Source: an uncultured Alphaproteobacteria bacterium
GTDB taxonomy: Bacteria; Pseudomonadota; Alphaproteobacteria; RF32; CAG-239
Assembly (NCBI GenBank): GCA_944391715.1
Contig: CALXUP010000006.1
Coordinates: forward strand, 1,895 to 65,894
Direction: 5' to 3'
DNA length: 64,000 nt
The position numbers were made by a program, and so were the translations under genes. Under the pieces are notes generated by a model. The model was not told where the DNA came from and searched no databases. It saw only the letters and a list, made by a program, of their open reading frames with translations. The number at the start of each line of letters is the position of its first letter. Position 1 is the first letter of the stretch. Shown in pieces: positions 6,705 to 30,905 of the stretch.

Positions 6705-8024
6705 TCATATTTTACGGACAGAAATAATCCAGCCGAAGACAGGTTCTCCGTTTTCATAACGCAAAATTTCTTCTTTGACTTTTTCAAGACGGAATCCGTT
6801 TCTTTGCAAAATATGCGTTATATATCCCCAGCTATGAACAAAGCGACCGCTGGCATGCAGAAAATAATCGCGTTCGTTTATCCGGTTTTGCGATATGGAA
6901 AAAATCGCCCGACCGCCTTTTTTCAGTGCCTGGTTCATTTTGGCAAAAAGGGAATCCAAATTGCCGAAATAAATAAAGACATCGGCAGCGGTGATTAAAT
7001 CCAGGCAGGAGATTTTATCATTCAAAAAATGTAAAATATCACCACAAAATAATTTGGAATAAATATTTTTCTGTTGGGCTTTTTTTAACATTCCGGCAGA
7101 CAAATCGACCCCGTAAATATGCCCTTTGCCGACATATCCCGTCAGATATTCCCCGACCAGTCCGGTGCCGCACCCTAAATCTAAAATTTCCAGGTTTCGA
7201 AAGATTTTCCAGCCGTAAAACCGTTTCAAAAAAGCATTAATATATTCCGGGACACGATACTCCAAATTGCGCAGCGACTCTTCAAAAGAATCCGCAAAAT
7301 AATCAAAAACTTTTTGGATATAAGAGGCATCGGAAATTTTAGCCGAGACATCGTTTTTCAGCGCTGCGACGGCGTATTTGACAATCGGATTTTCCGGAAA
7401 AGAATCCAACCACTGTTCGGCATAGGGCATAACCTTTTCCATTCCGGCTGCCGTTCCGATTTCATAAAGTGCATAGGCGTAATTTATATGCTGGGAATCT
7501 TCTCCGCTGCTGGCTTTTACTGCCCGGAATCCATAATCAAGCGCTTTATCATAATCGCCTGTTTTTTCCGAGCATTGTTCCATATAGTTCAAGGCCCAAA
7601 AGACATCCGGATTGAGGTTGAGCACGCGTTCCAGATATCGTTTGGAATCTTCATACCGTCCCTGTTCAAAATAAACGGCTCCCAGAATCAAGAGCGTATC
7701 AATGCTGTCAGGGTTGGTCTTTAATATCTGGTTGGCTTTGGTAATGGCCGCCGCATAGCGTTTGCAGGCGAAATCAACATTCAAAAGGTTGATATTGACC
7801 ATTTCGGAATTCGGAACCAGTGTCCAGGCATTGCGATAATAACTTTCGGCCTTTTCATAATCTCCGAGCATAAAATAAGCACTGCCGCAATCACACAATA
7901 AATCGGCATTGTTCGGCACGGTCTTTAATCCGCTCAGGGCATAGTGAATCGTGCGCGGATAATCGCCGCTATGATAAGCCTCAAGCGCCAGGGTATGATA
8001 ATCTTTTTGTTCCGTATTTTCCAT
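6705..8024 (-). CDS. TPR-repeat protein fused to class I SAM-dependent methyltransferase domain
   Basis: 439 aa. N-terminal TPR-like repeats (AYHSGDY, GDYEKAESYYRNA, GRYEDSKRYLERVLNLNP). C-terminal Rossmann MTase motif I ILDLGCGTGLVGEYL followed by the acidic DVFIYFG motif II region. Confidence 0.75.
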   Translation of the reverse strand: MENTEQKDYHTLALEAYHSGDYPRTIHYALSGLKTVPNNADLLCDCGSAYFMLGDYEKAESYYRNAWTLVPNSEMVNINLLNVDFACKRYAAAITKANQILKTNPDSIDTLLILGAVYFEQGRYEDSKRYLERVLNLNPDVFWALNYMEQCSEKTGDYDKALDYGFRAVKASSGEDSQHINYAYALYEIGTAAGMEKVMPYAEQWLDSFPENPIVKYAVAALKNDVSAKISDASYIQKVFDYFADSFEESLRNLEYRVPEYINAFLKRFYGWKIFRNLEILDLGCGTGLVGEYLTGYVGKGHIYGVDLSAGMLKKAQQKNIYSKLFCGDILHFLNDKISCLDLITAADVFIYFGNLDSLFAKMNQALKKGGRAIFSISQNRINERDYFLHASGRFVHSWGYITHILQRNGFRLEKVKEEILRYENGEPVFGWIISVRKI

Positions 8025-8071: not shown

Positions 8072-8302
8072 TTAATTCCGGCACAGGTCAAGCTGCCTCT
8101 TGAGCTTTTCCAACCGGCCGATCCATTCCCAGGTGTTTTTGAACTTCTCATATTCTGCCTGTTCCAACTCTGTCGCCACCTTGCTGCCTGCCAGCGGGAA
8201 CATCGGGCAGAGTTCAGAGTTGTCCGCGGCGCATGAGCTCAAGCAAAGCATCACGCTCAAGATTAGGCGTTGATGCGATTTTGCGATATTGCGACGAAAC
8301 AT
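8072..8302 (-). CDS. o-spanin (Rz1-like outer-membrane lipoprotein), overlapping the i-spanin gene in another frame
   Basis: 76 aa. Signal peptide MFRRNIAKSHQRLILSVMLCLSSC with lipobox LSSC. Its 5' end overlaps the 3' end of ORF 8214..8420 by ~90 nt in a different frame, the classic Rz/Rz1 arrangement. Confidence 0.5.
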   Translation of the reverse strand: MFRRNIAKSHQRLILSVMLCLSSCAADNSELCPMFPLAGSKVATELEQAEYEKFKNTWEWIGRLEKLKRQLDLCRN

Positions 8303-8420
8303 ATTTTACGACCTCGATTTCTTTGGTTACGGTTTGAACGCGGCAATGACTGCGGCCGAGAAAATAACTCAGCACGCAAGCCGCTATTATGCCGAAAAGG
8401 TTAAAAATATTTCTGCTCAC
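8214..8420 (-). CDS. i-spanin (Rz-like) candidate, GTG start coupled to the upstream gene
   Basis: GTG at 8420-8418 overlaps the TGA of the upstream small gene (GTGA). Product MSRNIFNLFGIIAACVLSYFLGRSH... has an N-terminal TM helix then a charged periplasmic segment. It overlaps the embedded lipoprotein gene. Confidence 0.45.
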   Translation of the reverse strand: MSRNIFNLFGIIAACVLSYFLGRSHCRVQTVTKEIEVVKYVSSQYRKIASTPNLERDALLELMRRGQL

Positions 8421-8554
8421 AGTCCGGCTCCCAGCAATAATAAGAATGCCCGGGCAACGTTTTCGGCATATTGCGGACAGAAAAAAGAAACCGCTGCAAG
8501 CGTCAGGAAAGCGCCCCAAATCATTAGTTTTTTGATATTTTTCAGTCTTTTCAT
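8417..8554 (-). CDS. 45-aa single-TM protein (holin or antiholin candidate), translationally coupled on both sides
   Basis: ATGA overlap with the stop of 8551..8796. Product MKRLKNIKKLMIWGAFLTLAAVSFFCPQYAENVARAFLLLLGAGL. Too short for the ORF track. The first ATG in the ORF-track frame 8214..8519 gives an implausible N-terminus, which supports this frame. Confidence 0.35.
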   Translation of the reverse strand: MKRLKNIKKLMIWGAFLTLAAVSFFCPQYAENVARAFLLLLGAGL

Positions 8555-8796
8555 TTTTTGCCTCTCATTTTATTTTCACGAAAAATCAAATCTAATTTGA
8601 CTTCGATTTTGGTCAGGATTTTGTTTTGTTCGTTAATCGACGTGGTTAAATTCTCCAGGCGGATGTCCTGCTTGTCAAAATTTTGCTCAACCTTGTCGAC
8701 TCTGGTTTCAATATTTCCCTGCCAGCGTCCGATACGGATAAAATTGACAACAACGCCGCACAGTGCCGCCAGTCCGGCAACCAATCCCCAATCCAT
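8551..8796 (-). CDS. phage membrane protein with N-terminal TM helix and coiled-coil region (part of lysis cassette)
   Basis: RBS gaggag + ATG (MDWGLVAGLAALCGVVVNFI...) directly after a terminator hairpin. 81 aa; heptad-like VDKVEQNFDKQDIRLENLTTSINEQNKILTKIEV. Confidence 0.45.
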   Translation of the reverse strand: MDWGLVAGLAALCGVVVNFIRIGRWQGNIETRVDKVEQNFDKQDIRLENLTTSINEQNKILTKIEVKLDLIFRENKMRGKK

Positions 8797-8815
8797 GCTT
8801 TTTCTCCTCAAAAAA

Positions 8816-8834
8816 AGCGGGCTATGCGCCCGCT
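8816..8834 (-). terminator. rho-independent terminator (hairpin + T-run on minus strand)
   Basis: agcgggc-tatg-gcccgct stem-loop, followed on the minus strand by TTTTTTT. It overlaps the last codons of 8822..9202. Confidence 0.5.
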
Positions 8835-9202
8835 TCTCCTTCATTGCTTTCGGAAGTTTCTTCCGGTTTCGGATAGTCATCTTTTACCTTTTTTCTGGCC
8901 AGAAAAAAGGTTGACGTTTTTGCCTCTTCACCAAACAATCCGGCATTTATGTCATGATAGAGCTTATCAAGCTGTTCCGTTACGTCGGGATAGGCCTGTC
9001 GGCGTTCTTCCGCATAGTCATAGGGCTTTTCCGGCTCCTCGCCCTTGAAATACATTTTGCCGTTCCAGGCGGTGATGACTTCTCTTTCCGTCGGCTGTAT
9101 CGAATCCAAAACCAGACCGCAGGCAAAAGCCCCGTCCCGTACGGCTTCGGCATCGCTGCCGGAAAGTTTGATTTCATTATTAATTAATCCGATATAAATC
9201 AT
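8822..9202 (-). CDS. hypothetical phage protein (possibly tail-fibre assembly/chaperone)
   Basis: 126 aa, acidic C-terminus. Sits downstream of the tail fibre genes, the usual Tfa position. No diagnostic motif seen. Confidence 0.35.
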   Translation of the reverse strand: MIYIGLINNEIKLSGSDAEAVRDGAFACGLVLDSIQPTEREVITAWNGKMYFKGEEPEKPYDYAEERRQAYPDVTEQLDKLYHDINAGLFGEEAKTSTFFLARKKVKDDYPKPEETSESNEGEAGA

Positions 9203-9603: not shown

Positions 9604-11231
9604 TAGTTTTCTCCTTCTGCATAGTAAAATCTGAATCTGTTCAACGTTCCGCCACAGTCATAATAAGCCGTAAAAACATCGTCTTTTTTTACGGCGAGAC
9701 TGACAACTGCATTTGTTGATGCTGTCGGGACACAACAACGATAAGCCGTTTTTCCTTCCAAGCTTACAAACTGATTGGCGGCGTTTGACGTTTTGGATAA
9801 TACGACCCAGCCGTTGGCCGGTGCCGTATAAGACGCTCCGCTGGCCTGCAGCGCTAAATCCGTATATTTTTCGGATGCCATCGGTAATGAAGAAAGTAAG
9901 ACTTTTCCGGCTGCCGATAAATTGCCGCAATCAGAATCCACCTTGTCGTTCAGACTTTCCGCAATCTCTCCGACATCAATCAGATTGTCGTTTTTTATCG
10001 TATTACCGACAAAGAAGTAGAGATACATCTCTACCGCCCGCTGCTGAACCGATGCCCCGTCCTGATAGGCAGAAGAACAACGAGAAGCATCAAATTCAAT
10101 ATTCCCTTGCGAGTTGCTAAATACTTGCAACCCCGTTCCTCCTTGGCCGCTATATGCTTTTTGATAAAATCCTCCTGAAATACGATTCAATGCCGTATAA
10201 TTTGTTGAAAAAGCACCCGTGATGTTTGGCAAACTTTCAGGCACATAAGCTCCAACGTTGTTACGACTGCCGACGAAGCCCCATTTTGTCCGGGGAAGCT
10301 TGAAACGTCCGTTTTCCGTATCCAGAATATAATACCACGCCACACCGGTACTTTCATATAATGCGGCGATATTTTCTGCCTGCTCCGGTGCGCAGATTTT
10401 ATAGCCTTTGGGCGTTTTCTTATAAGTAATTGCAATATTGTCGACGGTATCCGTTGTTTCTGCAGATGCCTCATCGGCATATTGGGAAGCCAATTCATTA
10501 TACGCGGCAAAATATACGCCGCCGTCCTGCCAGCTGAACGTATCCGCCCGCAGCCAGCTTGCCGACTCCGGTTTATGATCAAACCAGGCCGGTTGAAAAA
10601 GTTCATAGCCGACATCGGCATTTTCAGCGGCAACTTTGGCTTCTCCCGCCCAATATTCCGAGCTGCCTTCCGGTTGTTCTTCAATCGTACCGACCGCCCA
10701 TTTTCTGGCAGTTTCTACAAGACCGGCAGCCGTCTCCGCCGAATCAGAAGCATTTAACGCGCTGCTTTCTGCCTGTGCGGCAAATGACGAGGCAGAAACT
10801 GACGAATTCTGAGCATTTTCTGCACTGGCAGCAGCATTTCCGGCGGCAGTTTCGGCTTCGGAAACAATTGTTTCAAGCTGAGGCTTTATTGTTTCGTCAG
10901 CGTATTGCTGCAGTGCCGGTTCGGCCGTGTTCTCGACATAAATATTTATTTCCGCTTTTGCCGTTTCTATATCTTCGGCAGTTTTTTCGGAAATCTTTTC
11001 GATGTTTTTACCGGTATGTTCGGAAACCTCCTGTTTTTTTGTTTGGGTATAGTCATCCAACTCCGGCTTGGCATGGTTATTGACATAAGCCTGAATCTCT
11101 TCTTCACCCGACTTGATATAAAAAAGAGGCACGTTGATATCCAACTGTACCTCTTCCTGGAACAAGACTTCAATCTTCTGTCCGGTTCCGTTAAAAACGG
11201 TAATGCCGTTTTCTTCATTTACAAAACTCAT
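9603..11231 (-). CDS. phage tail fibre protein
   Basis: 542 aa. N-terminal helical repeats (ISEKTAEDIETAKAEINIYVENTAEPALQQYADETIKPQLETIVSEAETAAGNAAASAENAQNS) typical of fibre shafts. C-terminal Gly/Ser/Asn-rich beta region with an LPNITG motif shared with the tail-collar protein. Confidence 0.7.
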   Translation of the reverse strand: MSFVNEENGITVFNGTGQKIEVLFQEEVQLDINVPLFYIKSGEEEIQAYVNNHAKPELDDYTQTKKQEVSEHTGKNIEKISEKTAEDIETAKAEINIYVENTAEPALQQYADETIKPQLETIVSEAETAAGNAAASAENAQNSSVSASSFAAQAESSALNASDSAETAAGLVETARKWAVGTIEEQPEGSSEYWAGEAKVAAENADVGYELFQPAWFDHKPESASWLRADTFSWQDGGVYFAAYNELASQYADEASAETTDTVDNIAITYKKTPKGYKICAPEQAENIAALYESTGVAWYYILDTENGRFKLPRTKWGFVGSRNNVGAYVPESLPNITGAFSTNYTALNRISGGFYQKAYSGQGGTGLQVFSNSQGNIEFDASRCSSAYQDGASVQQRAVEMYLYFFVGNTIKNDNLIDVGEIAESLNDKVDSDCGNLSAAGKVLLSSLPMASEKYTDLALQASGASYTAPANGWVVLSKTSNAANQFVSLEGKTAYRCCVPTASTNAVVSLAVKKDDVFTAYYDCGGTLNRFRFYYAEGEN

Positions 11232-11235
11232 TTTT

Positions 11236-11586
11236 TTACTCCGTTACTTCCGGGGTGATACGAAAAACCGCAACCTTGTTTACATCGCCGGGATATACCG
11301 TATGGATATCGCCGGTTTTTAACTTTATCTGGATATCGGTTTTGTAATCACCGGGTGTGATATTGGTATCGGCAGGCAAAAGTTTCAGCCGCACTTTGCC
11401 GCCCGAGACATCAAAAATCTCACCGGACTTGCTAAACAAAACTTTTTCTTCATTATTCCTGACCGTCATTTTAACGGTACAATCCGTCAAATCCCACGGC
11501 TTGTCGTCCGTTCGGAACTGCAGCACGATATCAAAACTGTCGCCTTTGCGAACAATTATCATATTGGGCAAAATCACTCCTGCCAT
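11236..11586 (-). CDS. hypothetical phage tail/baseplate protein
   Basis: 116 aa between the tail-collar and tail-fibre genes. No recognisable motif. Confidence 0.4.
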   Translation of the reverse strand: MAGVILPNMIIVRKGDSFDIVLQFRTDDKPWDLTDCTVKMTVRNNEEKVLFSKSGEIFDVSGGKVRLKLLPADTNITPGDYKTDIQIKLKTGDIHTVYPGDVNKVAVFRITPEVTE

Positions 11587-11587
11587 T

Positions 11588-12382
11588 TTAGTCCTCCTTT
11601 GCTTTAATAAAGTAGTTTACGGCCTGGTTAACCGGCGTAACATGGCCCGATTTGCCGTAAATCGCAGAAGAGCGCGCGGCATCAAAAGACACTGGTACGC
11701 GTCCGGTGCCATCCCAACCACCACCGGCGCTGAACTGGATTTTATTATTGACGCCGGAATCAATCTTCAATGCTCCGGAATAAGCATCCGGTCCACCATC
11801 CCATTTGGCCTGAGCCAGCTGTGCCGAACCGGTAATATTCGGCAGACCTTCTTCCTGCGTGGTATAAACGTCTTCGGCAGAATTACCGCCCAAACCGCGC
11901 AGAAACTTGCCGCGATAATCCGGAATATTAAAAGTCGTCACGCCGTCACCGGCACCGAAATTTGTTCCGACAAGCTCAAACAAGTCGGCATAATCCGTCC
12001 GGCTGACGGCCTGTCCGTCGCATAAAAGCCAGTTTCCGTGATTGGCCGTCTGCAAAGAGGCTTTGATATCGCCTAAGTTCATATTATCGTTCAGGATATC
12101 TTTGATTTCCGTTTTCAGCTCATCGAGCTTGTCCAGCACCTGTTTGCGGTTGACGGCATCATAATCCAGTGCGCCGTTGGCCAGGTTTTTTATTTGAAAA
12201 TTGCCGGCGTCGATATTACCGCGCATTGCAACGCGACCGTCTCGCAAAAAGGTCTGCGACAACCCTTCGGCAAGGTTATTGTCTTCTTCATCATGGTGGT
12301 CGGTTACAATATCAATGTCATTTATCCGGTCGTCTTCCCAACTGTGAATCCGGGTAAAATTTCCTTCACTGTCAAAAGGCAT
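11588..12382 (-). CDS. phage tail-collar-domain protein (short tail fibre-like)
   Basis: 264 aa. Contains the Phage_tail_collar-type motif LLCDGQAVSRTDYADLFELVGTNFGAGDGVTTFNIPDYRGKFLRG. GLPNITG motif. Confidence 0.75.
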   Translation of the reverse strand: MPFDSEGNFTRIHSWEDDRINDIDIVTDHHDEEDNNLAEGLSQTFLRDGRVAMRGNIDAGNFQIKNLANGALDYDAVNRKQVLDKLDELKTEIKDILNDNMNLGDIKASLQTANHGNWLLCDGQAVSRTDYADLFELVGTNFGAGDGVTTFNIPDYRGKFLRGLGGNSAEDVYTTQEEGLPNITGSAQLAQAKWDGGPDAYSGALKIDSGVNNKIQFSAGGGWDGTGRVPVSFDAARSSAIYGKSGHVTPVNQAVNYFIKAKED

Positions 12383-12388
12383 TTTTCC

Positions 12389-12425
12389 TCCTTATATAAA
12401 AAAAGCCGCTCCGGCATCATGCAAG
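12389..12425 (-). terminator. rho-independent terminator downstream of the needle-like gene
   Basis: Minus strand: agccgctcttgcatgatgccggagcggct followed by TTTTTTT. Confidence 0.5.
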
Positions 12426-12450
12426 AGCGGCTGAAGTTACACCAAAAATT

Positions 12451-13323
12451 TTAAGCTGCGGCCAGAGCATAGTTGACGTGCAGCAAGCCATATTCGTCCT
12501 GCATAACGGCTTCCGGGCGGTATTCCGCGACCTCTTGCGCAATCAGCCCGATTTGCGGAATATCTTCACCGATATAGTTGAACAAATATACGGTCAGGCC
12601 GTTATCCAATCTGCCGACCGGAATGATGTTTTCCTTCACTCTGGCATCAGAGAACATTGCCATGGCCGCTCCGCTCAGAAACTGATTACCCAGGGCATAT
12701 TGACCTGCCGAATTTGCAGCTTTGTTCTGAGCAATGCGAGAATCTGCCCCGAACTGGGCTTGATATTTTGCCAGGGCAACATCATCGCCGCTCATTGAAT
12801 TGGATATTAACTGCAAAATTTCGTTTACCGGATACTGCCGGGCGGCATTTGAGAAATTTCCGGCCCGAATAGAATCCGACAAGCTGTTGCTAAAAGCCTG
12901 TTGTCCTTGTAAAACGCTGTTATAAGCAGCCTGGTTCAGAGCATCATTCTGTTGCTGATACATTGAGTTCATGGCATTTTGATAAGCTTCGCTGCCTACG
13001 CTTAAGCCCTGATTTTGCAGACGGGTTTCCAGTTGGCGTTGCTGTTGCTCAAATTGCGGCGTCAACCTGCTGACATATGAATTATATGTTGCATTTTCTG
13101 CCCGCTGCCGGGCCGCATCCGAAGCATCTACCGAATAAACATAATCCGGCCGGCTGCTCAGCGTCTGCGATAAATTGTAGGCGCTTTGGTTCAAATTGTT
13201 GAGTGTATTGTCAACCAAAGACGTGTCTTTATTATTGAGATAATTCAGGTATTCCCGTTCGGAAGCGTACATCGACGTGCTGGCGCCGCCGCCCCCGAGC
13301 AGTTTTCCGATGCTTTTACTCAT
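12451..13323 (-). CDS. coiled-coil tail-needle/fibre-like protein with C-terminal peptidase S74 intramolecular chaperone domain
   Basis: 290 aa. Residues ~20-220 are Q/N/S-rich alpha-helical (coiled-coil-like). The C-terminus SDARVKENIIPVGRLDNGLTVYLFNYIGEDIPQIGLIAQEVAEYRPEAVMQDEYGLLHVNYALA matches the S74 auto-cleaving chaperone domain (SDxRxKxNI...GxIAQEV). The start has an in-frame TAA immediately upstream and a GGAG RBS. Confidence 0.7.
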   Translation of the reverse strand: MSKSIGKLLGGGGASTSMYASEREYLNYLNNKDTSLVDNTLNNLNQSAYNLSQTLSSRPDYVYSVDASDAARQRAENATYNSYVSRLTPQFEQQQRQLETRLQNQGLSVGSEAYQNAMNSMYQQQNDALNQAAYNSVLQGQQAFSNSLSDSIRAGNFSNAARQYPVNEILQLISNSMSGDDVALAKYQAQFGADSRIAQNKAANSAGQYALGNQFLSGAAMAMFSDARVKENIIPVGRLDNGLTVYLFNYIGEDIPQIGLIAQEVAEYRPEAVMQDEYGLLHVNYALAAA

Positions 13324-13385
13324 TTATTTTCTCCTTTTATGATTTATTAAAATTATGGCGCCGGATTGCCGGCATAAAAAAAGAG
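13290..13385. repeat. copy A of a ~95 bp promoter/RBS/5'-coding module (MSKSIGKLLGG)
   Basis: Near-identical (about 3 mismatches) to 15319-15415. Includes the ccggcaatccggcgcc hairpin, RBS ggagaaaataa and the first 11 codons. Confidence 0.6.
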
Positions 13386-13429
13386 GAAAGATAAACATCT
13401 TTCCTCTATGAAATCAAACCTATGTTCTG

Positions 13430-13726
13430 TTATTTTACTTCTTTATCACTGAAAACGGCAAGCGGTTTTAAGATTATTGTCAGCGGGATGACAAACAGAA
13501 ATGCCGTTTCTATACTATACGGAATAAGCAGAAAACGGGGATCGTATATATAGACGATTAAAAACGGCGTCGTTAAAATGGTCAGCGTTTTGTACAGCCT
13601 GGCCGAATCTGAAATAAAATATTGAAAAATCCGCTGCAGCATAAATATCAGCAACGTTGCTTCAAATAAAAAACTAATCAGCAGCCCAAAGCTCCAAAAA
13701 CTTGCTATTTCTTTAATTATCTGCAT
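13430..13726 (-). CDS. small 3-TM membrane protein (holin candidate)
   Basis: ~98 aa from MQIIKEIASFWSFGLLISFLFEATLLIFML...; three hydrophobic segments. AT-rich. Lies between the GH108 muramidase gene and the needle gene. Confidence 0.4.
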   Translation of the reverse strand: MQIIKEIASFWSFGLLISFLFEATLLIFMLQRIFQYFISDSARLYKTLTILTTPFLIVYIYDPRFLLIPYSIETAFLFVIPLTIILKPLAVFSDKEVK

Positions 13727-14104
13727 TTTTATCACTCTTTTTGTTGGCCGTAAAACGGAACATACTCGGAACAACCGCACCAACCACCCCGTACAAAAAA
13801 CCAAAAGAAAAAGTCGGGCTTAGGCAGCCGAAGATTATACCGCAGGTCAGTAATGAAAAAATGTTTGCTCAGACTTCCGGATTTTTTAATTTATACCGTT
13901 TTAAAATGTTCTGAAATATATGTACTAACAGTAATACCCAGATTATCCAGTGAATAATTGATGGCATGATTATCCCCTATTGCACTCATATTATTTCCTT
14001 ATAAAAATTTAATATCCAAACTATTATGACATTTGCATTTAATTAAACTTTTGCTGTTATTACATTAGAATAGTAGATTTTAGCAAGTTAATTTGAGGAT
14101 AAAA

Positions 14105-14554
14105 ATGAACAAAAATATCTTGCGTATTTTAGCGGTGTTACTTCTTCTTAATTGTTGTAACATGCAAGAAGAGAACAAAATTTTAAGTTACGGTGAAAAG
14201 CAAGCCGCTCAGATTAGTTTTCAATGTTGGGAAAAAGCTTTTGAAAACAATCCGACATCTACGACTGGCAATATTTCGGCTGGAATAAAAGCAAATGAGT
14301 GTATGGATCAACAGATATACCAGCTTCTTGATTCCGAATTTACTCAGGAAACGCAAGCAGCCATGACGGCAAGATATAATGCAATTCGTCAGCAGATTCT
14401 TGATTTTTATTGGGATTTAAGAAATGACAACAAATATTGCATTCCGTCTTGTGGCACAATGCAACAAATATTTAATCGCGGTGATTGGTTCAAATTTCAA
14501 GAAAAAATATTAGGTGCCTTGCTTGATTTACAAAAAAACCAAGATGCGTTCTAG
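14105..14554 (+). CDS. secreted/lipoprotein-like Cys-containing helical protein (possible DUF1311/LprI-like lysozyme-inhibitor fold; speculative)
   Basis: RBS gaggat; signal-like N-terminus MNKNILRILAVLLLLNCC. Six Cys. Opposite strand to all neighbouring phage genes. AT-rich. Confidence 0.45.
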   Translation: MNKNILRILAVLLLLNCCNMQEENKILSYGEKQAAQISFQCWEKAFENNPTSTTGNISAGIKANECMDQQIYQLLDSEFTQETQAAMTARYNAIRQQILDFYWDLRNDNKYCIPSCGTMQQIFNRGDWFKFQEKILGALLDLQKNQDAF

Positions 14555-14601
14555 ATAAAAAATTACTTCAAACGCATCTTGTATTAACTTTTTGATAAGC
14601 T

Positions 14602-15351
14602 TTATTCCATTCTTAATCTGTTGATTCTTGGAATTAGGCCTCTATAGTTTGGTCTTTTTTGTTTGGCCTCTTCAATTCTTTTTTCTAGAACATAATTATT
14701 AATCAAAGCAACTGTATTTTCATCAATATAATTTAAACTATTTATTGTTTGACTCCCCAAAATACCGTCTTCACTTACAGTATTATGACTATAAAGATTA
14801 ATCCCTTCTTGAAGCCATTTTGTAATATCCTTCGGACTATGATTGACATAGCTATCAAACATTGTTTCCGCCAACTTTTCATTTTGAATTTCATTTATTC
14901 GATATGCATCGTAGTAATCGTTTTTATAAATGATATCAATATGATGTTGAGTTAAATCTTTTATATCGTTAGGAAATGTCTCTCTATAGTGCGGATGAGC
15001 CCTTAAAAAACGATTTAACGTCGGCTGTATAATTCCAGTATGCGTCCTTTGATCTATTTTCGCTAAGTTATCTTCATATCCTATCCCTTCAACTTCTGGG
15101 CTCTTTAAATTTCTAACAAATTTTTCAAAACGAGAAGGAAAATATTCAGTGTTTCTTCTCTCTTGTGGTATGTATGATATATTTTGTTCTTGATATAATG
15201 ACTGTCCCCAGGCCGGTGTCGGTTCAATGTAAGATTGTTCATTTTTCCCGAATAGTTCAAAATAATTTACCTGCCGATCTTTGTTAAAATTGTTCTCAAT
15301 CGGCATTGGCTCATATTTACCACCAAGCAGTTTTCCGATGCTTTTACTCAT
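14602..15351 (-). CDS. GH108-family muramidase with C-terminal PG_binding_3-like domain (endolysin or virion-associated lysin) carrying a 70-aa N-terminal extension
   Basis: 249 aa. Residues ~75-235 follow the GH108/PG_binding_3 pattern: EVEGIGYEDN...THTGIIQPTL (cf. EGGYxxDPxDPGGxTxxGIT), IIYKNDYYDAYRINEI (cf. IYxxxYWD), MFDSYVNHSPKDITKWLQ (cf. FDxAVNxGxxxAxKxLQ), DGILGSQTINSLNYI (cf. DGxxGxxTxxAL). The first 11 aa are identical to the needle-like protein. Confidence 0.6.
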   Translation of the reverse strand: MSKSIGKLLGGKYEPMPIENNFNKDRQVNYFELFGKNEQSYIEPTPAWGQSLYQEQNISYIPQERRNTEYFPSRFEKFVRNLKSPEVEGIGYEDNLAKIDQRTHTGIIQPTLNRFLRAHPHYRETFPNDIKDLTQHHIDIIYKNDYYDAYRINEIQNEKLAETMFDSYVNHSPKDITKWLQEGINLYSHNTVSEDGILGSQTINSLNYIDENTVALINNYVLEKRIEEAKQKRPNYRGLIPRINRLRME

Positions 15352-15415
15352 TTATTTTCTCCTTTTATGATTTGTTAAAATTATGGCGCCGGATTACCAG
15401 CATAAAAAAAGAGGA
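15319..15415. repeat. copy B of the ~95 bp promoter/RBS/5'-coding module (MSKSIGKLLGG)
   Basis: See copy A (13290-13385). Confidence 0.6.
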
Positions 15416-15447
15416 AGGCTCTCACCCTCCTCCCGTTTATGGTGCCG

Positions 15448-15867
15448 TTACAAATAACGGCATTCCCTTTTTAACATACCGAAAAGAATGCAATCCCCGC
15501 CGTTTTCTCGATAAGCCCGCAATCTTCCTTCTTCGCGAAAGCCAAGCTTTCTGACAAAATTCAGGCAAGGCAGGTTATCGTCCGCGACCATCAGGCTTAT
15601 TCTTTGGCAATGCAAATCTTTAAAAGCGACGCCGAAAATGTATTTCAGCACCCTTTTGGTACACCAGCGTTTATCCGTGCTGAAGATTGTCCACCAGACA
15701 TCTGTATTTTTGCGGTAGTCATGAAAAATCAGTCCGCCGATCATTTTGCCGTTCCGGGAAAAACCGCAGGTATAATTTTCTCCGCACCATTGGGTATCTT
15801 CTCCCAAACCAAAGCAAACCCAGTCTTTAATGACGCCGCATTCATCGTGGATGATTTCCGTTTCCAT
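15448..15867 (-). CDS. GNAT-family N-acetyltransferase (RimJ/RimL-like)
   Basis: RBS aaggag + ATG (METEIIHDECG...). C-terminal acetyl-CoA-binding region KRVLKYIFGVAFKDLHCQRISLMVADDNLPCLNFVRKLGFREEGRLRAY is typical of GNAT. Confidence 0.7.
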   Translation of the reverse strand: METEIIHDECGVIKDWVCFGLGEDTQWCGENYTCGFSRNGKMIGGLIFHDYRKNTDVWWTIFSTDKRWCTKRVLKYIFGVAFKDLHCQRISLMVADDNLPCLNFVRKLGFREEGRLRAYRENGGDCILFGMLKRECRYL

Positions 15868-15880
15868 GGATTTTCTCCTT

Positions 15881-17440
15881 TTACAAGATACCGCTGCCGG
15901 ACTCGTAACGAAAACCGGTATCATACCATTCAATCAGGTTTCCCCTGGTTTTGGTCTGAAAAACAAGGCTGATTTTGAAGCCGGTTGCCGAACAGCCAAT
16001 CCACTGGCTGCGGATTTTTCCTTTCAGCGTTGCCCATTTGGTGCCGATCGGATTGTCCAGGCTGCTCCAGGCCGCAGTGTTCCATTTGGTCACACCGGAA
16101 TAACCGATATTTTCGGCATAGGCCTTATCTTTGTCATCAAAATCCACATTGGCATAAACAACCAACGCATATTTGGTGCTTGACTTTGTACGCGGATTAA
16201 TCATTTGAATTTTCTTCAAATTTCCATTACCGAGATTTGTATAGGCCTGAGCTATTTTGCCAAAGATATGGACTTTATTGTCCGAATAGCCTTCGTCAAA
16301 CAGATAGACGCCGTCTTCCCCGCCGAAATACAGGCGCCCCTGAAACAGCCCCCAGCACAAGGCGCGGATATTGGTAAAACGGCACCAGGCGCCGGTATTG
16401 GTATTGATAACGTGCTGTTCAAACTGCTGGTTGACCGGAACGTTAAACAAAGCATATCCGCCGCGGCCGTAGATAATCCCCTGCCAGCCCTCTTTTCCCT
16501 TGTTGTTTCTGGTTCTGTCCAGCACCAAGCCCCTGATTTTATCGGAAAAGGCAATCTGAGACGCATTGGCCTGTTCCAGCGGAAGCGCCTTTGACAGCGG
16601 AATATAACCGTCTTCCGAAATAATGACAACATCTCCCTGATAAGGCAAAAGGCAGCGATAGCCTATCGGACGGCTCATCCGAAAAACGCCTTTCAACTCC
16701 CAATCGCCGGCATCTCCGGGATCCGAACCGCGATAAACGGCCGCTTCGCCTTCCGACGTGATAAAAACCGTCAGATCGTCAATTCCCTGCCCGCCGTCCT
16801 GTGTCCAGGAGGCGATTGCCATAAGTTCTCCGCCGTCGCGAAAAATTGTTGAAAGGTCAAATTTGACCAAGGTTCCCTGCACTTCTCCCACACCCTCGGA
16901 ATACCAGGCATTGAGCGTGCCTTTCTCGACAAAGAAAAGCCGCTGGTGCGACGTACAAACGTTAATCAGCCGCTGCGGCAGCAAATTGGTGCCGGAAAAA
17001 GAGGCGTCTTCAAAATGTTCGTCGCCGTTGTCATCAACATAAAACGTCTGCGGCTTGTCATATCCGTTGACCAGCAGCAGACGATTTTTGAACTGGCAAT
17101 ACTGCCAGCGCCCTTCGCCGAAATCTTTTTTATAATCCTTTATGGCAGCCTTGGAAGAAATATTATAAACCGTGGAACCGGCAAAAGCCAAAAAGCGGTT
17201 TTCATCGGGCAATTTGTATTCCGCCAGCGTCCGGACTTTTCCATCCAGCGCCGCATAACGGACATAACCGCGGCGCAAAGCAACTTTGGTATCCAGCGGG
17301 AGATAATTGTCCATGACGACGGCATCGGTTTCTGACATCAAATCCAGGCTGTCGCGGGCGTTTAATCCGCCAATCGGGCTGGGCAGCGTGTAGTTGACCG
17401 ATTTGGCGCTGCGGTTAATTGTTCTTTGCTGCATTGACAT
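15881..17440 (-). CDS. large phage virion/tail protein (P22 gp10-like position)
   Basis: ~519 aa from MSMQQRTINRSAKSVNYTLPSPIGGLNARD with an aggag RBS. The longer ORF-track N-terminus lacks an RBS and overlaps the upstream gene. Assigned by position after the 237-aa protein. Confidence 0.5.
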   Translation of the reverse strand: MSMQQRTINRSAKSVNYTLPSPIGGLNARDSLDLMSETDAVVMDNYLPLDTKVALRRGYVRYAALDGKVRTLAEYKLPDENRFLAFAGSTVYNISSKAAIKDYKKDFGEGRWQYCQFKNRLLLVNGYDKPQTFYVDDNGDEHFEDASFSGTNLLPQRLINVCTSHQRLFFVEKGTLNAWYSEGVGEVQGTLVKFDLSTIFRDGGELMAIASWTQDGGQGIDDLTVFITSEGEAAVYRGSDPGDAGDWELKGVFRMSRPIGYRCLLPYQGDVVIISEDGYIPLSKALPLEQANASQIAFSDKIRGLVLDRTRNNKGKEGWQGIIYGRGGYALFNVPVNQQFEQHVINTNTGAWCRFTNIRALCWGLFQGRLYFGGEDGVYLFDEGYSDNKVHIFGKIAQAYTNLGNGNLKKIQMINPRTKSSTKYALVVYANVDFDDKDKAYAENIGYSGVTKWNTAAWSSLDNPIGTKWATLKGKIRSQWIGCSATGFKISLVFQTKTRGNLIEWYDTGFRYESGSGIL

Positions 17441-18128
17441 ATACTCCTTCTGCCGCCGGATTAAAAACCATACCGGCAAGGTTAATATCGCGGGAGGCCA
17501 GGCCGCTGCCGAATTTGGCTTTGACTTCGCGCTCGTATTCGTTAAATTCTTCTTCATACGGCATACCGTTGCGCCGGTTCCAGCGCCAGACAATGCCTTT
17601 TTTGACCAGAAATTCATCAAAAACAGGAACATCGGTATTTTTAGTCAGTTCGGATTTTTCCTCGTAGCCGTTTGCCGCATCAAACACAATGTTTGACGAG
17701 CGATACTGAAAAACAATCTTAATCCCGTCGGGCGGCGGCGTCAGAAATTTTATCATTCCGTTTTGGATTTTGAACTTCAGACCGGCATCGGGGCAGTTGA
17801 AATATTTTTCACGCATCCAATCCTGCGGGGTGATGGCGCCGATAACTTTTTCCGCGCTGTCTTTGATATAGACCGTATTATTCAATATAGAATAAAAATC
17901 GGGGCAAAACTGTTTGATAAGATAAGAACTACGGCCGCCGGAAGTGCGCAAAACGCCCTCCTTGGTCAGTTCCTGCCAATCGCCATAGCGCAACAGGCTG
18001 TCCAAAGTATCTTTGGCAACACTTAAAAATACAGCCTCCTGTTGAGAATCTTCATTAAACAAGTCTTCCGGCTTTTGAGCCGCAACAAGGCTTGCCGCCT
18101 CACGGCAGATTTCAAGCATATTCTTCAT
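17415..18128 (-). CDS. hypothetical phage virion protein
   Basis: 237 aa, GC-normal, within the morphogenesis operon. No motif recognised. Confidence 0.45.
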   Translation of the reverse strand: MKNMLEICREAASLVAAQKPEDLFNEDSQQEAVFLSVAKDTLDSLLRYGDWQELTKEGVLRTSGGRSSYLIKQFCPDFYSILNNTVYIKDSAEKVIGAITPQDWMREKYFNCPDAGLKFKIQNGMIKFLTPPPDGIKIVFQYRSSNIVFDAANGYEEKSELTKNTDVPVFDEFLVKKGIVWRWNRRNGMPYEEEFNEYEREVKAKFGSGLASRDINLAGMVFNPAAEGVYVNAAKNN

Positions 18129-18424
18129 GTTTTCTCCTTATTGGTTGTTATTTAATAAAAAAAGAACACCTGTTCAGGCTTGAACAGATGCTCGTTATAC
18201 AAAAAAACGCCGATATTACGGCGTAAGCTATTTTCTTTAGTTAAATTTTACTGATAATTTGTTTTTTATAAAAATTTAACTGCTACTTTCAAAAAAGACT
18301 TACAGTAAAAATAATTGTCCAATATAACATATAAAAAAATAGACTTAATGAAAATATATATCCAATGATTATTAATGTAAAATTTAAATAAACTAAAAAC
18401 TTATTCAAAGATCATTTCCTTTTA

Positions 18425-18640
18425 TTATAATTCTGACTTTATAACGGTGCAAAAAGTTATACAATAAATATAACCAAATAGAAGAATGCTTAATAGCAAT
18501 ATTCTAATAATGTATTTCCAATGACGAAAATAATTTATTGCTTTTATTTTATCAAAAAATTTAATAAGTAAACCTGAAGAATCTGTATCTTTAATACTAG
18601 ATTCTTCAAGTCGTTTTTGTTCTTTTTTTGTTTTTCTCAT
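18425..18640 (-). CDS. small tail-anchored membrane protein, KTKKEQ family (member 1)
   Basis: MRKTKKEQKRLEESS...AINYFRHWKYIIRILLLSILLFGYIYCITF. Basic N-terminus, C-terminal TM. AT-rich. Confidence 0.45.
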   Translation of the reverse strand: MRKTKKEQKRLEESSIKDTDSSGLLIKFFDKIKAINYFRHWKYIIRILLLSILLFGYIYCITFCTVIKSEL

Positions 18641-18644
18641 ATTA

Positions 18645-18920
18645 TCAAATATCCTTAACTGTATCAGCAAAAAGAAATACTAATATTAAAAGTTCAATGT
18701 ATGTCAGAAATAATGCAATTTCTACATTTTCTTGTTTTAAGAGCGACAATTTTTTCCCGAACAAAATGCATAAAAAACACCCTGACAGAAAAAATAATAA
18801 AGCTATACAAAGCCAATCCAAAAATAAATTTTCTTTTTGAACACCGATTATTCCCATAAAAAAGACAGGAACCGTCATTGTTAACAACATTGCCAACTGA
18901 TGAAAAAATTGTTTTATCAT
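18645..18920 (-). CDS. small multi-TM membrane protein (family 3, member 1)
   Basis: 91 aa. The C-terminus LLKQENVEIALFLTYIELLILVFLF is similar to that of 20704..20961. Confidence 0.45.
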   Translation of the reverse strand: MIKQFFHQLAMLLTMTVPVFFMGIIGVQKENLFLDWLCIALLFFLSGCFLCILFGKKLSLLKQENVEIALFLTYIELLILVFLFADTVKDI

Positions 18921-18921
18921 T

Positions 18922-19212
18922 TTACATCCCTCTCATAAGCGATGCGATTATTGGCAATCCAATAACCAAGGCAATAAAAAACAAAATCCAATCTATATAC
19001 AGAGCATATTGTATTATCTTGCGGTAAGGAATACCTAACGTGATATTAAAGAAGGCCAGAAATGCTAAGACAAATAAAATAATCTGTAATGCTATAAAAA
19101 CATATGGGGCATAATAACCTGAAAAACCTAACATTTCGCCTACTATAGACAAGGGCGCAATTGCAACCCATGCTGCGTAAACCCTGATAAAATTTTGTAT
19201 CCGTTCTTTCAT
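18922..19212 (-). CDS. small multi-TM membrane protein, MKERIQNFIRV family (member 1)
   Basis: 96 aa. The N-terminus MKERIQNFIRVYAAW is nearly identical to that of 20992..21270. Confidence 0.5.
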   Translation of the reverse strand: MKERIQNFIRVYAAWVAIAPLSIVGEMLGFSGYYAPYVFIALQIILFVLAFLAFFNITLGIPYRKIIQYALYIDWILFFIALVIGLPIIASLMRGM

Positions 19213-19223
19213 TCTCTTTTCCT

Positions 19224-19352
19224 TAAGAAATCATTTTGAGCAATAAACCAAACCATATTCCTCCTAAAACAAACATAGAGATAAGAAACGTCGGCACTAT
19301 TGCTGCATATAAAACAACTAAAATAACAAACTGAAAATACTTATGTTTCATC
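19224..19352 (-). CDS. 42-aa hydrophobic peptide, translationally coupled (TGATG) to the upstream gene
   Basis: MKHKYFQFVILVVLYAAIVPTFLISMFVLGGIWFGLLLKMIS. Start overlaps the stop of 19352..19500. Confidence 0.3.
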
Positions 19353-19500
19353 AGATTAGCCCCAAAATGATATTACCCCAAAGCAGAAGACTGAATAAAA
19401 ACATCCACAAAAGCCAAATAAAGTGCTTTTTATAATCAATATTATCTACCAAGTTATTAACTTCAGATAGTTTATCTTTCAATTTTTGATTTTTCTTCAT
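19352..19500 (-). CDS. small tail-anchored membrane protein, IDYKKH family (short member)
   Basis: MKKNQKLKDKLSEVNNLVDNIDYKKHFIWLLWMFLFSLLLWGNIILGLI. ATGA overlap with the upstream gene. Shares the NIDYKKHF motif with 20045..20233 and 20428..20640. Confidence 0.4.
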
Positions 19501-19664
19501 AACAGAAACTCCATTACCTGCATTTCTATTTTAGTTAAAATAACGAAGCCTATAATAAAGATAGAACTCGTCATAAAAAACACAGCCAGAGGAGCAAGAA
19601 ATAAGTATCCTGCCCCAATCATAATTAATTGTATAAAAGAAGACACTGTTTTTAATTTTGACAT
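19497..19664 (-). CDS. 55-aa 2-TM membrane peptide, translationally coupled
   Basis: MSKLKTVSSFIQLIMIGAGYLFLAPLAVFFMTSSIFIIGFVILTKIEMQVMEFLL. Stop overlaps the ATG of the next gene (ATGA). Confidence 0.3.
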   Translation of the reverse strand: MSKLKTVSSFIQLIMIGAGYLFLAPLAVFFMTSSIFIIGFVILTKIEMQVMEFLL

Positions 19665-19673
19665 TTTCGAACC

Positions 19674-19889
19674 TTACCAATCTAATGAAGAAAAAAAGAA
19701 ACACACTGCAAATATAAATACAAAGAACAATAAGATGTCTAATAAAAATAATTTCCAGAGTCTTTCACCTTGCTTTTTGTAATCAAGCTTATTAACTTTT
19801 TCTATCAGCTTAGACCAGCAGTTAGAAGAAGTTAAAAATTTTTCATTAACTTCTTCCGGACACATTTGTTCTTTTTTTGTTTTCCTCAT
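19674..19889 (-). CDS. small tail-anchored membrane protein, KTKKEQ family (member 2)
   Basis: RBS aagga + ATG giving MRKTKKEQMCPEEVNEKF...KLDYKKQGERLWKLFLLDILLFFVFIFAVCFFF. The longer ORF-track N-terminus is hydrophobic and lacks an RBS. Confidence 0.45.
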   Translation of the reverse strand: MRKTKKEQMCPEEVNEKFLTSSNCWSKLIEKVNKLDYKKQGERLWKLFLLDILLFFVFIFAVCFFFSSLDW

Positions 19890-20044
19890 ATTAAATCCTT
19901 CCCGTCCAATCATTCTTACATATTTAATATTCCGTTTGTTACCATTGAGGCCATAGCTGCAAAATACATAAAAAATATAATTGAAGAGATATAACCAATT
20001 AACAATAAAATAAATTTTATAATCACACTCATAATCATCACTTT

Positions 20045-20233
20045 TCAAAGTATATATAAAAAGGTACCAATTGAATAAATAGCCAAAATTATTCCAAGGA
20101 TAAAAATTACTTTAATAATTTTCCAATGTTTTTTATAATCGATACTATTAATGAAATTATAAAAGCGGGAGAAAGCTGTTGTTTGCACGACAACTTCTCC
20201 CTCTTTCTTTTGTTCTTTTTTTGTTTTCACCAT
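20045..20233 (-). CDS. small tail-anchored membrane protein, KTKKEQ family (member 3)
   Basis: MVKTKKEQKKEGEVVVQTTAFSRFYNFINSIDYKKHWK + TM. About 80 bp of DNA (20150-20230) is identical to 20555-20640. Confidence 0.5.
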   Translation of the reverse strand: MVKTKKEQKKEGEVVVQTTAFSRFYNFINSIDYKKHWKIIKVIFILGIILAIYSIGTFLYIL

Positions 20234-20427
20234 ATTATCAAATATCCTTTATTTTTCAAATTTTATTCTTTTTTTTATTTTCAAAAGATACAATCATACA
20301 ATAAAACAGTTAATGACACTAACAAAAAAAGAGTTAAAGGAAATAATATGATATAAGAAAACGACAACAAAAAGAAGCGCATGAGCAAGAAGTATGTTTT
20401 TGAATTTTTCATATATATTCCTTTTTG

Positions 20428-20640
20428 TTAACTTAACCCATCAAAAGCATTTCCTGTCATAACAACAAAAGTTATTGTTAGAACGATGAAAAGAGTTATG
20501 TCTGCCAAAATCAACCAGCAAACATATTTAAAGTGTTTTTTATAATCGATGTTATTAATAAAATTATAAAAGCGGGAGAAAGCTGTTGTTTGCACGACAA
20601 CTTCTCCCTCTTTCTTTTGTTCTTTTTTTGTTTTCATCAT
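20428..20640 (-). CDS. small tail-anchored membrane protein, KTKKEQ family (member 4)
   Basis: MMKTKKEQKKEGEVVVQTTAFSRFYNFINNIDYKKHFKY + TM. Its first 35 aa are nearly identical to member 3. Confidence 0.5.
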   Translation of the reverse strand: MMKTKKEQKKEGEVVVQTTAFSRFYNFINNIDYKKHFKYVCWLILADITLFIVLTITFVVMTGNAFDGLS

Positions 20641-20703
20641 ATCATCAAATATCCTTTATTTTTCAGATACTTTGACAATATTAGATTTTTTTATATTTGT
20701 CTA

Positions 20704-20961
20704 CTAAAAAGGTACAAGGGCACCTAAAATAAATATTTCAGGAAACAAGAGGAAAAGTGCTAACTCTGTGTATTCTTGTTTGACATACGGAAGAGAAACC
20801 CCCACCAGCACTAAGAAAATGCTTATTGCCCATATCCAGCCTAAAATGACGGCCAAAAACATTATCGTTCCTATTCCCCCAAAAAGACCAATGAATAACA
20901 AAAAAAATAACGAGGGAAACATACCACACAAAAACATTAAATTCCAAAAACGTTCTTTCAT
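20704..20961 (-). CDS. small multi-TM membrane protein (family 3, member 2; MKER-like start)
   Basis: 85 aa. MKERFWNLMF... C-terminus YVKQEYTELALFLLFPEIFIL resembles that of 18645..18920. Confidence 0.45.
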   Translation of the reverse strand: MKERFWNLMFLCGMFPSLFFLLFIGLFGGIGTIMFLAVILGWIWAISIFLVLVGVSLPYVKQEYTELALFLLFPEIFILGALVPF

Positions 20962-20991
20962 TATCTTTTCTCTTTCTATTTTGCCTGAATA

Positions 20992-21270
20992 TCATTTCAA
21001 CATCATATTGTTCAACATTTCGATCCCAAATATTATAGTATCAACAACTATCCCCCAACGCACAATTTGAGCATAAGGAATTTTGAATGTTATTTTGAAG
21101 AATGCGAAAATTGCTAACACTAAAGCTATGGGAATGGATAAAAAAGGTGCTCCCCAAACTATTACAGCCCACTCATATTCTATTACCCACCGAAGCATAA
21201 AAAATAGAAAAATATCTACAACCATAAAGGCTGCAAATACTCTGATGAAATTTTGTATCCGTTCTTTCAT
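20992..21270 (-). CDS. small multi-TM membrane protein, MKERIQNFIRV family (member 2)
   Basis: 92 aa. MKERIQNFIRVFAAFMVVD... is a paralogue of 18922..19212. Confidence 0.5.
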   Translation of the reverse strand: MKERIQNFIRVFAAFMVVDIFLFFMLRWVIEYEWAVIVWGAPFLSIPIALVLAIFAFFKITFKIPYAQIVRWGIVVDTIIFGIEMLNNMMLK

Positions 21271-21334
21271 TTATAAGCTATCCTTTCATATTTTGAAAGG
21301 ATAGCTTATATTTTTTATTTTTTCAACTTAAATT

Positions 21335-25977: not shown

Positions 25978-26160
25978 ATTGCCGCTCCCTTGTTTTTGAA
26001 TATGCGATAGAGATAATCAAAATCCGGGCAAAGGCAAGGTGGCGGAACAAAATAAAAGCAGGAACTTAATTATTCCCGCTTTGTTTTTTTAATCGCCTAT
26101 CCCCCAAATTGTAATCATAAATTCTTACAACAATATTTCCTTGACTCTTCTCCTTTTATC

Positions 26161-26350
26161 ATTATATTGTTCTTAGATTGTTCTGAGAGACCAGAAAGTG
26201 GTTGGTCACATATAAGAGTAATTTTATATTAGAGGATAATGGAACACGCGCCCATCCAGAGCAATTTAGAAAAGCCTGAATATGACGATATTCTTGTTTT
26301 TCCAGAGCCGGGATATGACGATATCCCGGCTCTGTTTTTTATTCCGTCTC
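26161..26350. repeat. direct repeat R1 flanking the secreted-protein moron (contains terminator-like palindromes)
   Basis: Shares with 27090-27250 the blocks ttgttct(t/c)agattgttctgag, gcgcg..ccatccag.gcaatttagaaaagcc and the perfect palindrome gagccgggatatgacgatatcccggctc. Confidence 0.55.
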
Positions 26351-30867: not shown

Positions 30868-30905
30868 TTAATTCCATATACTGTTTCATTTTGTGCATTT
30901 CCTTT

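Follow-up and report, generated by a model that had tools for sequence, protein, structure and literature searches.

A short N-terminal peptide shared by a particle protein and a muramidase at a polymorphic locus of a phage-like gene cluster

Two genes with a common 5' end

We examined a 64,000-nucleotide stretch of DNA from an uncultured alphaproteobacterium (contig CALXUP010000006.1, positions 1,895 to 65,894), referred to below as the window. A phage-like cluster occupies 27 kb of this stretch (about 8-35.5 kb; ~8000-35600) and has host genes on its flanks. Within the cluster, two genes on the minus strand – one encoding a 290-amino-acid particle protein with an S74 domain (12451-13323), the other a 249-amino-acid GH108 muramidase (14602-15351) – begin with the same eleven codons. 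The origin and likely role of this shared N-terminal peptide, which we call the tag, are the subject of this work. Related loci and contigs are labelled L and protein clusters P, each with a number, and WIN stands for the window.

The 5' ends of the two genes are copies of an ungapped direct repeat of 97 nt, both on the minus strand. Copy A, at the S74 gene, spans 13292-13388 and copy B, at the muramidase gene, spans 15320-15416, so that the repeat starts lie 2028 nt apart. Ninety-two of the 97 positions are identical. A sequence-only reading of this DNA had recognized the near-identity by eye; the repeat is real, but alignment gives five mismatches where that reading counted three. The window contains exactly two occurrences of a 37-nt core of the repeat, with none expected from 100 shuffles.

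The repeat extends from about -65 to +32, counted from each ATG, and contains the 3' half of a terminator stem with its T-run, a small hairpin of the form GCCGG-N4-CCGGC, an AAGGAG ribosome-binding site and codons 1-11, which encode MSKSIGKLLGG (13291-13323 in the S74 gene, 15319-15351 in the muramidase gene, both minus strand). Three coding differences separate the copies, at codons 9, 10 and 11, and all three are synonymous. Exact alignment also bore out the earlier statement that the two proteins have these eleven residues in common and are unrelated past codon 11.

As previously read, a terminator-like hairpin on the minus strand precedes each copy: one (15434-15409) follows the gene of a GNAT acetyltransferase and leads into copy B, and the other (13407-13382) follows the gene of a 98-amino-acid membrane protein and leads into copy A. 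The small leader hairpin lies at 13359-13374 in copy A (GCCGG-CAAU-CCGGC) and at 15387-15402 in copy B (GCUGG-UAAU-CCGGC, with one G-U pair), again on the minus strand. Its stem is retained in nearly all of the 15 copies that cover it, with one mismatch in the L009 cargo copy, and its loop is variable. On the gene strand, a promoter scan placed no sigma-70-like site within the shared leader, and the overall number of sites did not exceed that in shuffled sequence. We therefore dropped the proposal that both transcription units are driven by the same promoter – a proposal that also sits poorly with the arrangement in most relatives, where the S74 gene lacks the leader and is translationally coupled to the upstream GNAT gene. 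An Rfam scan of 12300-15700 approached no gathering score (best 28 bits against 49.9), and a megablast of 11000-18000 against a phage collection returned no match.

The domain assignments of both proteins were right by Pfam. The S74 protein matches Peptidase_S74 over C-terminal residues 225-273 (33.9 bits against a cut-off of 22) and belongs to phrog_6121, a virion structural protein family (E 1.5e-39); it is homologous to gp23 of Brucella phage Tb, itself annotated 'virion structural protein'. S225, D226 and K230, which include the Ser-Lys catalytic pair at the cleavage site, do not vary in either of two sets, of 28 and of 66 sequences, and the C-terminal domain is predicted from sequence to be a self-cleaving intramolecular chaperone. 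An AlphaFold2 model, made as a monomer, consists of a helical rod followed by the chaperone domain, and its N-terminal segment with pLDDT <50 is exactly residues 1-11. The earlier label of 'tail needle' is unproven: this rod-and-chaperone model has no relative among solved structures. A family profile search against the sequences of solved structures gave chance matches only (E at least 0.14), and Foldseek of the model against the PDB gave only generic coiled coils (E at least 0.67).

Homologues of the S74 protein number more than 460, nearly all from metagenome-assembled genomes (MAGs) of gut and rumen Alphaproteobacteria. The N-terminus reads M-[SAGV]-K-[SATG]-[IVLF]-G in 100 of the 120 homologues listed; those 100 all have M1, K3 and G6, 98 of them have Ser or Ala at residue 2, and positions 7-9 vary. 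Because this N-terminus is conserved across the S74 family, we regard the eleven codons as native to the S74 gene and acquired by the muramidase gene. Neither the S74 protein nor a degenerate tag pattern gave a match when scanned against viral contigs, and the tag is not present on other particle proteins of Brucella phage Tb, whose gp23 itself starts MGKSAPK. At 40055 the window has a third tag-like match, which falls on the KMSKS motif of a cysteinyl-tRNA synthetase and was rejected as coincidence.

The muramidase assignment rests on several kinds of evidence. The 249-residue open reading frame (ORF) matches Pfam Glyco_hydro_108 at residues 101-171 (41.4 bits against a cut-off of 21.2). In an AlphaFold2 model, residues 1-68, made up of the tag and about 57 further residues, are disordered, and residues 70-249 form a confident globular GH108 fold, mostly at pLDDT >90. 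The N-terminal extension seen earlier is thus real, at about 68 residues rather than the 70 first read, and is predicted to be disordered. In Foldseek the model matched Brucella SagA (7dnp), Salmonella TtsA (6v40) and NMB1012, each at probability 1.00, with target TM-scores between 0.64 and 0.74. Almost no variation is seen at E88 and G89 (consensus EGGYED, EGIGYED in the window), and we take E88 to be the catalytic Glu of the GH108 EGGY-type motif. On sequence and modelled structure the protein is a GH108 muramidase, with activity predicted. Its best PHROG match is an endolysin family, and Pfam found no MuF domain (PF04233) in it.

A cassette inserted at a polymorphic locus

Between the two repeat copies lies a low-GC cassette (13389-15319; 24-42% GC against ~45-55% in the flanks) that holds the tagged muramidase gene, a convergent lipoprotein gene and two genes for small membrane proteins. 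The lipoprotein gene (14105-14554, plus strand) encodes 149 residues with the lipobox LLNC, and its product is a candidate periplasmic immunity protein; the same gene accompanies the GH108 cargo in L004 and L005. The 98-residue membrane protein, with several hydrophobic segments, is encoded last in the cassette (13430-13726, minus strand). The other small membrane-protein gene (13716-13967, minus strand) has 83 codons and is broken by an in-frame TGA at 13869-13871. This TGA could be a nonsense mutation, a sequencing error or a case of recoding, a reading weighed also for an in-frame TGA in L057; the near-identical locus L005 has TGG (Trp) at the window's position. Pfam identified no significant family in the small membrane proteins or in the non-muramidase cargos described below.

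A collection with one genome per species has the same phage-like cluster in about 60 of its gut and rumen alphaproteobacterial MAGs. On the minus strand its genes run from large terminase, portal and major head protein through a 237-residue tail protein and a 583-residue protein to the GNAT gene (15448-15867, minus strand), then the cassette region with the S74 gene, and on to a collar-domain fibre, further fibre genes, holin-like proteins and spanins. Among annotated phages the nearest is the podovirus Brucella phage Tb, in which gp20-gp23 have the same order: tail protein, 'amidase', acyltransferase and S74 homologue. The acyltransferase gp22, the counterpart of the GNAT protein, is adjacent to gp23.

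Comparison of these loci shows that the GNAT gene is the ancestral direct upstream neighbour of the S74 gene. In about 55 of the 60 loci compared, the S74 start directly follows or overlaps the GNAT stop (distance -31 to +20 nt), and the cassette is absent from about 55 of the 60. Only in the window, in L005, L006, L007, L009 and L010, and in the metagenome contigs L001-L004 do 1.4-3.6 kb separate the two genes. The cassette is therefore an insertion into an otherwise coupled GNAT-S74 pair. In L014 a 133-nt spacer between the two genes (8868-9000) contains a terminator-like hairpin and no cargo; it may be the scar of cassette loss or the state before insertion.

The locus is also polymorphic. 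Five cargo forms occur behind the same tag: the GH108 muramidase, a protein of 174 residues (P0123), a related protein of 167 residues (P0124), a truncated 146-residue version of the 174-residue form, and a protein of 270 residues. In the sister genomes, every form has a dedicated pair of small membrane proteins encoded after it. The first ~65 residues of the GH108 protein, P0123 and P0124 are 76% identical, after which the three diverge into differing C-terminal domains. L006 contains, at 7363-7710, an orphan C-terminal fragment that is 81% identical to residues 157-270 of the 270-residue cargo of L010 and is followed by the same two membrane-protein genes, and contig L003 has tandem cassettes. 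In most cassette genomes the repeat ends at about +32 (+27 in L009), independent of cargo type.

These are the features by which polymorphic toxins are recognized – a conserved N-terminal part joined to unrelated C-terminal domains among close relatives, and an orphan C-terminal cassette in L006. Every cargo type has its own lipoprotein or pair of small membrane proteins beside it as candidate immunity neighbours, for which protection is predicted. The sequence-only reading, working from one genome, had missed that the unit is a low-GC insertion and one allele of a polymorphic cargo locus. It had likewise passed over the convergent lipoprotein gene beside the muramidase and the fact that the lysis cassette in this clade lacks an endolysin.

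Recombination and selection on the tag

The shared 5' end might be a footprint of recombination, a functional peptide, or both. The leader and tag of the cassette genomes fall into two haplotypes: type A is that of the window, L005 and L006, type B that of the other genomes, and the haplotype is always common to both copies within one genome. The same GH108 cargo (94-96% identical) carries type A in the window and type B in L004. Because both copies share one haplotype per genome, we conclude that recombination keeps the two DNA copies alike and that their high identity in the window reflects cassette exchange or gene conversion. Taken alone, this identity is uninformative on the function of the peptide.

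Such homogenization invites an account in which recombination is the whole explanation: a foreign cassette would have been captured by duplicating the 5' end of the S74 gene, and the codons would supply only a start and efficient translation initiation for expression, with the peptide itself playing no part. The ~65 nt of non-coding leader, conserved as well as the coding part, fit this account, as do the single haplotype of each genome and the toleration of non-synonymous variants such as G10R and L8Q/R in cargo tags.

What speaks against it comes from tags that have diverged from the S74 tag to which they correspond. Compared with its own S74 tag, the cargo tag shows three synonymous and no non-synonymous differences in the window, 3/0 in L043, 7/0 in L057 and 3/0 in the pair P0045/P0190. 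Over these four independent lineages the total is 16 synonymous to 0 non-synonymous, against 1 to 28 in the next eight codons. L100, a relative of L043, adds tag differences of 5 to 0. Upstream similarity is limited to about 13-25 nt in L043, L100 and L057, and selection at the mRNA level would not keep amino acids through synonymous change.

The cargo of L043 is a 241-residue pesticin-like lysozyme (24.9 bits against Pfam Pesticin, slightly below the cut-off of 25.8) encoded downstream of a complete lysis cassette, with only the ~25 nt upstream of it resembling the S74 leader. In L057, at 17610-18395, a GH108 gene is fused to about 30 S74-like N-terminal residues and contains a single in-frame TGA, after which the frame continues. 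P0190 is a pesticin-like lysozyme that starts MSKSLGFS and is encoded between pheT and pfkB, far from particle genes and preceded by unrelated DNA. The S74 subfamily P0045, which has the same MSKSLGFS start, was found in two of the metagenome samples of P0190. The tags of P0190 and P0045 use different Ser, Leu and Gly codons, including a switch of serine codon family from TCA to AGT, and the peptide is retained at a chromosomal locus all the same. The constrained core of the tag is M-S-K-S-[IL]-G, with L9 and G10-11 added in some lineages.

That the tag is kept at the protein level in independent lineages, including a cargo gene far from particle genes, favours a functional peptide. Judged from these codon comparisons, the tag is under selection to match the N-terminus of its own S74 protein, beyond the effect of DNA homogenization, and we regard recombination as the sole explanation as quite unlikely. 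The sequence-only reading had posed a functional tag and a recombination footprint as alternatives; both are supported, by the codon counts and by the haplotypes respectively, and they are not exclusive.

The S74-type tag is one of several N-termini found on these enzymes. Among 120 listed homologues of the pesticin-like lysozyme, 14 have S74-type tags, 66 a MDIYPKY-SPLGYQ module and 5 a precomputed MuF match; the GH108 subfamily has a like mix of N-termini, including a MuF fusion. Genes with the module, MDIYPKxISPLGYQTG..IDSYGVxHxGF in fuller form, stand downstream of the spanins in many relatives, in arrays of two or three with differing C-terminal domains and interspersed small membrane-protein genes, for example at L068 15156-18789 and L057 14682-16543 and also in L019, L023, L029 and L045.

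Tagged pesticin-like lysozymes with convergent lipoprotein or secreted partners were also seen away from particle genes, at L092 10001-11199, L087 10001-11212 and L090 182-1673. They lie in ordinary chromosomal surroundings: the pheT/pfkB region, an island that includes a restriction-modification gene, and a stretch bearing Ppx-GppA, FtsJ and N6_N4_Mtase genes. In L043, L092 and L087 the pesticin-like cargos have convergent lipoprotein partners with 57-71% mutual identity; L100 and L101 have similar convergent lipoproteins, and the partner of P0198 has a Sec-type signal.

A peptide under selection could also be read by an enzyme or an export route, for instance through N-terminal acetylation by the adjacent GNAT protein or export via the small membrane proteins. 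The GNAT and S74 genes are neighbours, often with overlapping stop and start, in the ~55 coupled loci and in Brucella phage Tb (gp22-gp23), and the GNAT protein has weak Acetyltransf_3 and Acetyltransf_4 matches. With Ser or Ala at residue 2 in 98 of 100 S74 N-termini, removal of Met is expected to expose one or the other, and these are residue types acetylated by Rim-type enzymes. Against acetylation, the start of Tb gp23 is only loosely similar to the tag and the chromosomal cargo genes are not beside a GNAT gene; against export, the S74 protein is assembled in the cytoplasm and hence needs no export signal. We consider recognition of this kind very unlikely.

A phage-like cluster as a possible delivery system

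The remaining alternative is that the muramidase is an ordinary lysis gene, an endolysin moved beside the S74 gene, with the small membrane proteins as holin and antiholin and an N-terminus that is incidental or regulatory. The lysis cassette of the window (8072-9202) encodes proteins of 126, 109 and 45 residues followed by overlapping inner- and outer-membrane spanin genes. About 38 of the 60 relatives have a GH24 endolysin between holin and spanins, and others have a gap of 0.7-1.1 kb there. Because the cassette of this clade is without an endolysin, the lysis explanation gains weight; the endolysin family as the top PHROG match of the GH108 protein points the same way, and no second muramidase was found among the cluster ORFs scanned. 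The GH108 gene lies 5.4 kb outside the lysis cassette.

Several observations count against this explanation. L043, L100 and L101 possess a full cassette of holin, GH24 endolysin and spanins and nevertheless encode a tagged lysozyme with a convergent lipoprotein. L006, L007, L009 and L010 likewise lack an endolysin in the cassette, yet their slot beside the S74 gene is filled by non-muramidase cargo. A 68-residue disordered extension and a paired periplasmic lipoprotein are atypical of endolysins, and the same domain is fused to MuF elsewhere. An ordinary role in lysis therefore seems unlikely to us.

Our preferred explanation is a polymorphic effector/immunity cassette in which a short N-terminal tag copied from the S74 protein probably directs loading into a particle; we give this a somewhat better than even chance. 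The repeat is the 5' end of the conserved S74 gene in duplicate, from the terminator tail through leader and ribosome-binding site to codon 11, and behind it different C-terminal domains, each with its own membrane proteins or lipoprotein, are swapped. The two repeats serve as recombination substrates, which keeps their DNA alike; the comparisons show this much. The tag itself would most likely be an address, bringing a protein to the site or assembly route that the S74 protein uses in the particle. The muramidase would then be loaded into the particle and released in the periplasm of a target cell, and the lipoprotein, as the candidate immunity protein, would protect the producer and kin cells.

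Known systems offer partial parallels. The internal proteins of phage T4 (IPI, IPII, IPIII and Alt) are diverse and have in common only a ~10-residue N-terminal capsid targeting sequence (CTS), which directs their entry into the particle for delivery with the DNA (PMC3012670). Like the tag, the CTS is a short N-terminal peptide common to otherwise unrelated proteins of one element, and adding it lets foreign proteins be loaded. The CTS is removed by the prohead protease. The window tag, by contrast, has no evident protease site or cleavage, none of the ORFs scanned was identified as a prohead protease, and loading is a prediction. The T4 peptide moreover targets the prohead scaffolding core of a myovirus, whereas the tag is the N-terminus of a rod-like S74 protein in a podovirus-like cluster.

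Two further systems pair variable toxins with phage-derived particles. MuF toxins are phage-encoded polymorphic toxins of temperate Firmicutes phages for which phage delivery has been proposed (Jamet et al. 2017, PMC5576092). There too the variable C-terminal toxin domains stand behind an N-terminal module that stems from a particle protein, and pesticin-like lysozyme and GH108-subfamily domains of the type described here occur fused to MuF in other proteins. The module in the window differs in being 8-12 residues with a disordered linker rather than a folded MuF domain, and its host is a proteobacterium. In extracellular contractile injection systems (eCIS; PVC and Afp), disordered N-terminal leaders load unrelated toxins into a phage-derived particle (PMC11495950, PMC10097599, bioRxiv 10.1101/2023.11.13.566157). 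Those systems are contractile and tail-like and load through the AAA ATPase Pvc15, and their leader is not reported as a copy of a structural protein; in contrast, none of the cluster ORFs scanned was found to encode a sheath, tube or ATPase.

The pairing of enzyme and neighbour has its own precedents. In pesticin/Pim and in the type VI Tge/Tgi pairs, a lysozyme-type enzyme is encoded next to a periplasmic or lipoprotein inhibitor, just as the cargo of the window and of L043 is a lysozyme-type enzyme beside a candidate lipoprotein inhibitor. Delivery in those cases is by TonB-dependent uptake or type VI secretion, and no such translocation domain or secretion genes were found here. Podoviruses also carry cell-wall hydrolases in the particle and release them on infection, as with T7 gp16 and phiKMV gp36, and in Brucella phage Tb the virion-associated hydrolase gp25 is encoded three genes downstream of the S74 homologue. 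The podoviral hydrolases are domains of large internal core proteins, which the window cluster lacks, whereas its muramidase is small, separate, polymorphic and paired with a candidate immunity gene.

Other features of the cluster bear on what kind of element it is. A CI/LexA-like repressor is encoded at 34901-35536 (plus strand) and a DUF6456 protein at 34147-34767; DUF6456 is the annotation of homologues of GafA, the activator of RcGTA (PMC9638019). The ORFs scanned yielded no integrase or replication genes, and the cluster may be a domesticated element resembling a gene transfer agent (GTA).

Within the structural operon, a second low-GC island (18100-22159; 27-30% GC) encodes a 274-residue protein with a Q-rich linker (21335-22159, minus strand), followed by about ten genes for small membrane proteins of 49-96 residues. 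The small genes fall into repeated families, with four copies starting MxKTKKEQK and two starting MKERIQNFIRV, and the island resembles a further toxin gene accompanied by arrayed immunity genes. GC dips of 30-36% at 26000-27100, 30000-31000 and 33000-34100 lie over ORFs without a family match (26339-27055, minus; 30283-30867, plus; 33190-34002, minus), which may be additional inserted accessory genes.

A set of observations weighs against loading through the tag. The tagged GH108 gene of L057 is interrupted by its in-frame TGA, and P0190 and P0045 are paired through shared samples rather than a shared genome. Cargo tags carry G10R or L8Q/R in L007, L009, L010 and L004, L101 has F8 against L8, and some cargo tags have only MSKSIG in common with any S74 protein seen. 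Within the clade the non-coding leader is conserved as well as the tag, as pure DNA duplication predicts. The missing endolysin means that the GH108 protein may instead, or also, act in lysis. For both proteins a location in the particle is a prediction from the genes, and the S74 protein has no sequence or structural relative among solved structures through which its role in the particle could be assigned.

A wider interpretation, which we advance tentatively and hold to be doubtful, is that the 27-kb cluster, rather than being an ordinary prophage, encodes a podovirus-like particle which gut and rumen Alphaproteobacteria have domesticated and maintain. The particle would carry polymorphic cell-wall-degrading toxins addressed by an 8-12-residue N-terminal peptide copied from the S74 protein, including proteins from distant chromosomal loci that stand beside their own periplasmic immunity genes. 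If this is true, the cluster would represent a type of toxin delivery or kin discrimination that has so far gone undescribed.

Among phage-linked polymorphic effector systems, the novelty lies in an unusually short tag that is copied from a structural protein. If 8-12 residues suffice as an address, the tag would be among the shortest natural loading tags of phage-derived particles and, to our knowledge, the first whose source is the N-terminus of a structural protein. With so few residues it would also offer an easy means of loading foreign proteins. In this little-studied group of gut bacteria, loading through the tag would explain the spread of swappable muramidase toxins and matched immunity genes both inside and outside the particle cluster.

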